This document shows, in pieces, positions 62,408 to 63,409 of a stretch of DNA of 64,000 bases (position 1 is the stretch's first letter; every line of letters begins with the position of its first letter). Below the pieces are notes generated by a model that was given only the letters and a program-made list of their open reading frames with translations, ran no database searches and was not told the DNA's origin. The position numbers and the translations under genes were made by a program. This DNA comes from Alphaproteobacteria bacterium (GTDB lineage Bacteria > Pseudomonadota > Alphaproteobacteria > Rickettsiales > SXRF01): contig JANRKF010000013.1 in the NCBI GenBank assembly GCA_033763575.1, positions 81,396 to 145,395 of the forward strand. Direction: 5' to 3'.

Positions 62408-63409
62408 ATGGGATATCGCAATTTGCCCCCTGCCAGAAAGCCACCGCCGCCCCTTTTTTCAGGCGGCGATCGCGAGGTTGGCGCACCTGCCTACCGGGGC
62501 CCCGAAGGCCCTGCCTATAGCCGGGAACAGGCAAAGATTATTTTTGAGAATTTGATGGATGCCAGAATAGATGGGAAGCCCATTCCCTTTATTTCTAATT
62601 ATCGGGGACATTGCATTCAACGCAAGGAATTGATGTTGTGGCATATGGTTTATCACCAAGGGGTGGATCCTGCCGCCCTGGGGGCTGTGGTGTCCGACCT
62701 GAGTGAAATCAAACCGCAGCTTCTGGCGAACTACCCGGTGCGTGTGGCACAGACAGTATTTCCAGGGCAATACACTATAATTAATGAAGAAGAGTTGAAT
62801 GGCCAACCACCGGAATTTATGGAAGCACTTTATGCCTTCCACATAGCACCGGCCATAAAAGTGCATAACGGGAGCCAAGTGATCGATTATGTCATCGATC
62901 CGGCCATATGCGCCAACCCGGCCACTCTCGATCAATGGATGAATGCCCACACAACCCCCGTGAAGCCGAATAAAAAAGAGGCAAAGAAAACTGTACCAGT
63001 TTATTATACTCCTCTCGATAAAAAAGAAATGCACCATGTGCACGGCGACTCGCTTAATGACGATGCACGTGACTTCCTGGTGCTGGTCTCAGATCATACC
63101 ACGATTCCACTGCCTTCAAGCAAGAGTCCCGAGGAAAATGAAAAAGCGCTGGAAGCAAGCGGCGATATTAATGATATAATCCGTGCGGTGAGCGATCTCA
63201 AGAGATGCAATGCCGTACAAAGTGATTTCTGCCGATCCATAAAAAAACGCGGATCGATAGATCTCCCCAACTGCGGCCCACGGGCGTTGAAAGCGGTGTT
63301 GGAACATACGGAGGGCAAGCATCCGGAGAAAATGTCGCCCGAAGCCAAGGCATCGTTCACCCGTTTTATGGGCGCGAGGAATCGGGAAGCACCAACGCTC
63401 GGCCTGTAA
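62408..63409 (+). CDS. Hypothetical protein with a Cys-His-Asp protein-glutaminase/papain-like core
   Basis: ATG is 1 nt after the upstream stop. Pro-rich N-terminus, then RGHCIQRKELMLWH (Cys 62612-62614), LYAFHIAPAIKV (His 62840-62842) and VIDYVIDPAICANPATLDQWM (Asp 62897-62899). Confidence 0.5.
   Translation: MGYRNLPPARKPPPPLFSGGDREVGAPAYRGPEGPAYSREQAKIIFENLMDARIDGKPIPFISNYRGHCIQRKELMLWHMVYHQGVDPAALGAVVSDLSEIKPQLLANYPVRVAQTVFPGQYTIINEEELNGQPPEFMEALYAFHIAPAIKVHNGSQVIDYVIDPAICANPATLDQWMNAHTTPVKPNKKEAKKTVPVYYTPLDKKEMHHVHGDSLNDDARDFLVLVSDHTTIPLPSSKSPEENEKALEASGDINDIIRAVSDLKRCNAVQSDFCRSIKKRGSIDLPNCGPRALKAVLEHTEGKHPEKMSPEAKASFTRFMGARNREAPTLGL

Follow-up and report, generated by a model that had tools for sequence, protein, structure and literature searches.

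A predicted protein-glutaminase-fold protein encoded in a variable gene slot of an alphaproteobacterial genome labelled Rickettsiales

This work concerns a protein of 333 residues encoded near one end of a 64,000-nucleotide stretch of DNA (positions 81,396 to 145,395 of contig JANRKF010000013.1, assembly GCA_033763575.1, hereafter the window) from an alphaproteobacterium assigned to the Rickettsiales. Profile comparisons identify it as a distant relative of the bacterial protein-glutaminases, and we lean towards its being an active, Sec-independent enzyme of the protein-glutaminase fold (PF18626, within the papain/transglutaminase-like superfamily), which would either stay in the cytoplasm or leave the cell through a dedicated system. 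An original prediction, made by a model from the sequence alone, had proposed a Cys/His/Asp triad in this open reading frame (ORF). When the translation was checked, the plus-strand frame at 62408–63409, its length of 333 residues, the codons of C69, H145 and D164 and the Cys–His and His–Asp spacings of 76 and 19 residues were all found as claimed. Mechanically the ORF could begin at 62327, giving 360 residues; the ATG at 62408 lies one nucleotide past the TAA of the upstream 810-residue gene (TAA-C-ATG) and agrees with the N-termini of the homologues. The gene and the features of its catalytic domain are as follows.

62408–63409, plus strand: protein-glutaminase-like gene, 333 codons and a stop, from the ORF and its translation, with conserved motifs in eight homologues
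62537–62947, plus strand: Pfam match to PF18626, residues 44–180, covering profile positions 3–105 of 106
62612–62614, plus strand: TGC codon of C69, the predicted nucleophile, within RGH-C-IQRKELMLWH (family motif G-x-C-x-x-R...HM-x-Y-H-Q), aligned to the Cys of DGC[YF]AR in 8z3i and classical PF18626 proteins
62840–62842, plus strand: CAC codon of H145, the predicted general base, within LYAF-H-IAPAIKV (family motif F-H-x-A-P-x-I-x-V), aligned to the catalytic His of Y-H-V-A-P
62897–62899, plus strand: GAT codon of D164, the predicted third triad residue, within VIDYVI-D-PAIC (family motif V-x-D-P-A-x-C), aligned to the Asp of I-D-P-S
62660–62827, plus strand: variable region from the Cys helix to the His strand, residues 85–140, longer than in classical protein-glutaminases by comparison of spacings

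Homology to the protein-glutaminases and the catalytic triad

A Pfam scan of the window protein returned a single match, to PF18626 (Gln_deamidase_2), with an E-value of 4.2e-9 and a score of 37 bits, above the gathering score of 25. Its relatives, described below, bring the family to nine members, and all nine matched PF18626. Even at E-values up to 10 no other Pfam family recurred among the nine, and none of them matched transglutaminase-like (PF01841), Nt_Gln_amidase (PF09764) or peptidase families. The match places the protein in the protein-glutaminase family of the papain-like superfamily, as the original prediction had anticipated. A phmmer search of PDB with the single window protein gave no match, and the profile of all nine members matched 8z3i, annotated as 'Protein glutaminase domain-containing protein', with an E-value of 4.6e-4. 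In that alignment the Cys region of the family, iPF..G.CvaRkdlMlkHMvYh, is paired with IPFQYANDG-CYARAHMMRQHMNYA, and the His/Asp region, fHvAPtikV...VlDPalCskPvtleqW, is paired with YHVAPLISV...VIDPSLFNQPVTITTW. Comparison of the family with six classical PF18626 domains by hhalign gave a probability of 98.7 % and an E-value of 2.4e-16 over 147 columns, with the classical Cys, His and Asp paired with C69, H145 and D164; the homologous region defined by hhalign runs from about residue 25 to residue 208. The resemblance to protein-glutaminases, first proposed from short motifs and a residue spacing, is borne out at the profile level, by a Pfam score above threshold as well as by the 8z3i and hhalign alignments.

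The eight true homologues (P0062–P0069, E-values 1e-39 to 4e-8) came from phmmer run exhaustively against 1.84 billion representatives. This exhaustive search was required, since a word-indexed search of 5.8 billion clusters returned the query alone and, when repeated with the family alignment, merely added weak PF18626 matches. The phmmer matches to two giant proteins, P0070 and P0071, were rejected as spurious, these being Ig-repeat and Por-secretion-tail proteins without PF18626. Scans of genome contigs and of JGI metagenome contigs yielded no further members; the family stands at about nine members among approximately 15 billion proteins.

In the nine-sequence alignment the triad is strictly kept, as the original prediction required, although the family is otherwise only about 30–38 % identical. 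C69 is found in every one of the eight sequences that extend over its position, and H145, A147, the pair D164-P165 and W177 are invariant in all nine. The triad of protein-glutaminase itself has been described as Cys42/His83/Asp103 in mature numbering (PMC3498931) and as Cys156/His197/Asp217 in the numbering of the pro-form (PMC4214742). The His–Asp spacing is 19–20 residues in the family and 15–20 in classical PF18626 proteins; the Cys–His spacing is 65–76 residues in the family, 44–58 in the sampled classical proteins and 41 in the Chryseobacterium enzyme (PMC3498931). An insertion had been suggested as the reason for the long Cys–His spacing of the window protein. This is right only in part, since the length is a trait of the whole family (65–76) and the classical proteins already range over 41–58. 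Within the variable region of residues 85–140 there is a semi-conserved A-[DN]-Y-x-x-R-I motif. The Pro-rich N-terminus that had also been pointed out is present in the window protein as PPARKPPPP but is conserved in none of the eight homologues.

Family-specific architecture, predicted structure and known relatives

Four further features distinguish the family from classical PF18626 proteins.

62456–62494, plus strand: N-terminal motif F-x-G-G-D-x-x-V-G-x-P-x-Y, residues 17–29, family-specific, conserved in the seven homologues that cover the region
62909–62911, plus strand: codon of C168, a family-specific Cys four residues past the catalytic Asp, invariant in nine of nine
63128–63406, plus strand: C-terminal helical module, residues 241–333, family-specific, with predicted helices at 241–251, 253–279, 291–303 and 311–326
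63263–63280, plus strand: motif L-P-N-C289-G-P (Cys codon 63272–63274) at the N-terminus of the predicted helix 291–303, an invariant motif of the family

The site equivalent to C168 is occupied in the classical proteins by Phe, Leu or another residue that is not Cys. In the C-terminal module the motif extends to L-P-N-C289-G-P-x-x-L, with N288, C289, G290, P291 and L294 invariant in all nine members. The module as a whole, some 90 residues, has no match in Pfam or PDB. An origin of its Cys-bearing helix by duplication or permutation from the catalytic Cys helix was considered and rejected, hhalign giving a probability of at most 0.1 %. By inspection, no member of the family has a hydrophobic N-terminal segment, and only about 25–35 residues precede the glutaminase domain, unlike a prepro architecture with a pro-peptide of about 114 residues. 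Assignment of the domain is well supported but routine, because a standard Pfam scan already recognises PF18626. What is new is the subfamily itself, which is very small and has its own architecture and gene context.

The AlphaFold2 model computed from the single sequence had a predicted local distance difference test score (pLDDT) of 35. In the model built from the nine-sequence alignment (pLDDT 50.6), C69 is located at the N-terminus of a helix spanning residues 68–82, and H145 and D164 flank a β-hairpin formed by strands 149–154 and 157–162, so that the predicted placement of the three residues is consistent with a papain-like arrangement. Residues 21–50 are among the better-predicted parts of this model, with pLDDT values of about 72–77. 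The top match of the model in PDB by Foldseek was the NMR structure of a protein-glutaminase, 2ksv, with a probability of 0.94 but an E-value of 0.32 over 39 columns; the match is marginal because the nine-sequence model is itself still weak.

The natural standard of comparison is the protein-glutamine glutaminase of Chryseobacterium proteolyticum and its relatives (EC 3.5.1.44; PDB 2zk9, 3a54 and 2ksv; 8z3i; PF18626). The catalytic domains are homologous, the triads align position for position, and both groups share the motifs IPF...G-C-x-[AR]-R...M, [YF]-H-[VIT]-A-P and [VI]-x-D-P...P-x-[TS]...W together with a His–Asp spacing of 19–20. The Chryseobacterium-type enzyme PGC, however, is a prepro-protein with a 21-residue signal peptide, a 114-residue pro-peptide and a mature domain of 185 residues (PMC13465451), whereas the window family lacks both the signal peptide, as judged by inspection, and the 114-residue pro-peptide. 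The family also has the longer Cys–His spacing (65–76 versus 41), fails the equivalog model of the Chryseobacterium-type enzyme, and adds the N-terminal motif, the invariant C168 and the C-terminal LPNCGP module. The two groups are found in different bacteria as well, the Chryseobacterium-type glutaminases in Bacteroidota and the window family in alphaproteobacterial metagenome-assembled genomes (MAGs) labelled 'Rickettsiales'. The window protein is not one of the secreted glutaminases of the Chryseobacterium type.

Other PF18626 proteins (for example P0073, P0074, P0077 and P0075) belong to the same domain family. Three of them, P0073, P0074 and P0077, are classical single-domain proteins which differ from the window family in having obvious signal peptides and no C-terminal module, and their identity to the window protein is limited to the His/Asp region. 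P0075, which is encoded outside the window, is a protein of 3491 residues whose N-terminus is WXG100-like and which also carries a zincin metalloprotease motif and three PF18626 domains. In P0075 the protein-glutaminase fold is a module of a giant, toxin-like and probably secreted protein, and with these PF18626 proteins the use of the fold extends beyond the glutaminases known as food enzymes.

Among enzymes of known function, the papain-like effector deamidases (Cif/CHBP, OspI, the C3 domain of PMT, SseI and TecA) resemble the window family in carrying a Cys/His/Asp triad on a papain-like core, and injected effectors resemble it in having no Sec signal. The structures of SseI and PMT can be superposed on that of protein-glutaminase (PMC3498931). 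Nevertheless, no sequence or profile similarity to the Cif, OspI, PMT, CNF, SseI or TecA families was detected in Pfam at E-values up to 10 or in PDB searches, and the window family differs from the effectors in that neither the window nor the related loci provide a secretion-system context. Ntaq1, a eukaryotic cytosolic N-terminal Gln amidase, has the same triad, and its closest structural homologue is protein-glutaminase (PMC4214742); the window family differs from it in having no match to Pfam Nt_Gln_amidase and no evidence of linkage to an N-degron pathway.

Gene neighbourhood and the variable slot

The glutaminase-like gene is the fourth in a local order of NDUS4, DUF2610, the 810-residue gene and the glutaminase-like gene, followed by a convergent transporter gene of the SDF family.

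59209–59505, plus strand: NDUS4-family gene, first in the syntenic block (Pfam E 1.4e-26; synteny)
59672–59959, plus strand: DUF2610 gene, constant upstream partner of the 810-residue gene (Pfam E 1.9e-35; synteny in L001, L003, L006, L007, L033 and L034)
59974–62406, plus strand: conserved hypothetical gene of 810 residues with 60 homologues, its stop one nucleotide before the glutaminase-like ATG
63819–64000, minus strand: 3' end of the SDF (dicarboxylate/amino-acid:cation symporter) gene, convergent, bounding the slot and running out of the window; its translation is near-identical to the SDF proteins of L006, L007 and L001

In the window and in three metagenomic contigs (L006, L007 and L008) the glutaminase-like gene begins 0–11 nucleotides behind the gene for the protein of about 800 residues, and the junction is apparently translationally coupled. 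The slot between this gene and the convergent SDF gene (62407–63818 in the window) holds a glutaminase-like gene in these four loci and is empty in L034. The slot gene of L001, encoding 223 residues, was considered as a family member and rejected as unrelated. In two less syntenic loci the ~800-residue gene is followed by genes for Hc1 (histone-like) and CorA (L033) or by DsbD (L003), and none of 21 named MAG loci carrying the ~800-residue gene has a family member within 5 kb. Two more distant members are solo genes: P0067 adjoins mipZ in a stretch of housekeeping genes, and P0066 closes a cluster of glycosyltransferase genes. The glutaminase-like proteins from the four syntenic loci share 31–38 % identity, compared with 53–68 % for the ~800-residue protein, 57–81 % for NDUS4 and 87–98 % for DUF2610. 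The GC content of the window gene is 51 %, that of the window 56 % and that of the upstream 810-residue gene 61 %; at third codon positions (GC3) the glutaminase-like gene falls well below the gene upstream of it in three of the four loci. Because the slot is variable, the syntenic copies are so much less alike than their neighbours (31–38 % against 53–98 %) and GC3 is lower in three of four loci, the glutaminase-like gene is accessory and fast-evolving, its active-site residues nonetheless being strictly kept. Searches for a defence or phage origin gave no PADLOC match and no meaningful PHROG match for the three genes.

The 810-residue protein has no Pfam or meaningful PDB match, and its PDB matches to huntingtin and p300 were dismissed as low-complexity artefacts. 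The protein shows strong conservation in its N-terminal half, has a conserved basic cluster resembling KRRKRR and contains variable low-complexity inserts rich in Gln, Ala and Asn. In MAGs of uncultured 'Rickettsiales' and 'Alphaproteobacteria', genes of this type always come after a DUF2610 gene, and every genome record with the protein is a MAG labelled either 'uncultured Rickettsiales bacterium' or 'Alphaproteobacteria bacterium'. At the far side of the slot, directly 3' of the SDF stop codon (63819–63821, minus strand), there is an exact 25-nucleotide direct repeat (CAAGCGCTCAAGTAGCGGAGCGGTA) at 63753–63777 and 63792–63816; its copies are 39 nucleotides apart, and the sequence occurs nowhere else in the window.

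The window as a whole is unremarkable chromosomal DNA from what looks like a motile alphaproteobacterium, containing a gene-transfer-agent tail gene, metG, tatD, an aroA-cmk fusion, dsbD, serA, a gene with a methyl-accepting chemotaxis protein (MCP) domain, glycosyltransferase genes, fliR, flhB and a hybrid histidine kinase gene. The gene-transfer-agent gene is an 866-residue ORF (28–2628, plus strand) with GTA_TIM, Phage-tail_3 and Rcc01698_C domains, encoding a tail or host-specificity protein; the large ORFs that come after it, 4189–5595 and 6958–9885, have no Pfam match. An ORF of 675 residues (15443–17470, plus strand) contains the domains of both EPSP synthase (aroA) and cytidylate kinase (cmk) and is therefore an apparent gene fusion. 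The MCP signalling-domain gene is at 34610–35635 and the FliR- and FlhB-type export genes are at 51552–53586, all on the plus strand. The organism appears to be flagellated and chemotactic, which is unusual under a Rickettsiales label. Between flhB and the hybrid histidine kinase gene there are two minus-strand ORFs without a Pfam match, 53590–55044 (484 residues) and 55259–56668 (469 residues), the latter a putative ORF overlapped by one on the plus strand. A divergent pair of tRNA genes, tRNA-Arg(TCT) and tRNA-Val(GAC), occupies 46247–46579.

Proposed activity and rival explanations

If the protein is an active protein-glutaminase-fold enzyme, as we favour from its sequence relationships, its mechanism by homology would have D164 orient H145, which would in turn deprotonate C69. 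The C69 thiolate would attack the γ-carboxamide of a protein-bound Gln with departure of ammonia, and the resulting γ-glutamyl thioester on C69 would be hydrolysed to leave Glu. We infer deamidation as the reaction, in preference to transamidation or proteolysis, and a specific protein, as opposed to protein in bulk, as the substrate; the N-terminal GGD motif, C168 and the helical module with LPN-C289-GP would serve in active-site access or substrate choice. Several points weigh against this assignment. Transamidation, proteolysis and acyl transfer are likewise catalysed on papain-like folds. The window protein scores only 14.4 bits against the NCBIfam equivalog NF040782 for the Chryseobacterium-type enzyme, for which 250 are required, and does so only over residues 142–183. 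The nine-sequence structure model has, besides its pLDDT of 50.6, a predicted template modelling score (pTM) of 0.52, and its pLDDT is below 50 around C69. Finally, the two additional invariant cysteines, C168 and C289, may leave room for other chemistry or for regulation.

The last of these points enters into a reading in which the fold is the same and the chemistry is not. The protein would then be a transglutaminase, a hydrolase of the protease or deubiquitinase-like kind or an amidase acting on N-terminal Gln, and C289 and C168 might take part as a second nucleophile or redox switch. A papain-like triad is compatible with all of these reactions (PMC3498931, PMC10318531), the closest structural relative of human Ntaq1 is protein-glutaminase (PMC4214742), and one of the two family-specific cysteines sits at the N-terminus of a helix as a nucleophile would. 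Yet PF18626 proteins are the only detectable sequence relatives, Pfam at E-values up to 10 gave no transglutaminase, Nt_Gln_amidase or peptidase match, and the C-terminal module is unrelated to the catalytic domain, so we regard a different chemistry as unlikely. A coincidental resemblance, the possibility with which the original prediction had qualified itself, or an inactive relic, would fit the low identity to characterised enzymes and the poor structure model. Against coincidence stand the PF18626 and hhalign E-values (4.2e-9 and 2.4e-16) and the conservation of the triad; with the 8z3i match added to these profile statistics and the three catalytic residues strictly kept against a background of about 35 % identity, this explanation is already largely refuted and is very improbable in either form.

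Where the enzyme acts is a separate matter. The idea of a bacterial effector deamidase, raised with the triad in the original prediction, is a hypothesis: the protein would be translocated into another cell, be it that of a eukaryotic host or of a competing bacterium, where it would deamidate a crucial Gln in its target. Cif, OspI, PMT and TecA are such effectors, on other papain-like folds. The lack of a Sec signal in the family, the patchy, accessory presence of the gene in a variable slot, the divergence of its syntenic copies (31–38 % identity against 53–98 % for the neighbours), the GC3 below that of the neighbouring gene in three of four loci and the uncultured Rickettsiales label of the lineage all fit this picture, as do the PF18626 genes noted beside Dot/Icm systems (PMC10318531) and the PF18626 domains of the 3491-residue toxin-like P0075 with its WXG100-like N-terminus. 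However, no secretion-system, chaperone or immunity gene adjoins the gene at any locus examined; specifically, type III, type IV and type VI secretion-system genes are not found next to it in the window or in L004–L009, and no downstream immunity candidate is conserved among L006, L007 and L008. The sole export genes in the window are the flagellar-type FliR and FlhB genes about 9 kb away, the window suggests a motile, chemotactic bacterium with gene-transfer-agent genes rather than a reduced endosymbiont, and there is no similarity to known effector deamidases. On this evidence a translocated effector or toxin is possible but doubtful. The tight junctions of 0–11 nucleotides in all four syntenic loci would favour a dedicated modifier of the co-encoded ~800-residue protein, coupled translation bringing the enzyme to a partner that it would deamidate or process, and the window's 810-residue protein does contain a Gln-rich stretch. 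That stretch is not conserved, however, most ~800-residue homologues have no glutaminase-like neighbour (including the closer relatives in L001, L033 and L034 and the 21 named MAG loci), and the distant members P0066 and P0067 stand alone in unrelated contexts, all of which makes a modifier of this kind rather improbable.

Characterised protein-glutaminases are secreted prepro-enzymes of Bacteroidota with industrial use. A search of the literature on DUF2610 and PF18626 found almost nothing functional. Taken to its furthest, the view of the window protein as an active, Sec-independent protein-glutaminase-fold enzyme would make the family a hitherto undescribed, Sec-independent and fast-evolving class of Gln-deamidase effectors or toxins of uncultured Rickettsiales-like alphaproteobacteria, in which the LPN-Cys-GP helix and C168 form a cysteine switch, a pseudosubstrate latch or a second active centre that silences the enzyme until delivery or until it meets a partner. 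We offer this as speculation with little probability of being right. In a rarer alternative, the family would supply the N-terminal-Gln amidase that is missing from bacteria and so feed an N-degron pathway of the Bpt type. With its intact triad, its lack of a signal peptide, its quick evolution and its coupling to a conserved uncharacterised gene in an uncultured alphaproteobacterial lineage, the family would provide a handle on the editing of Gln to Glu in proteins as a regulatory or offensive modification, and a first functional clue to the pair formed by DUF2610 and the ~800-residue gene.

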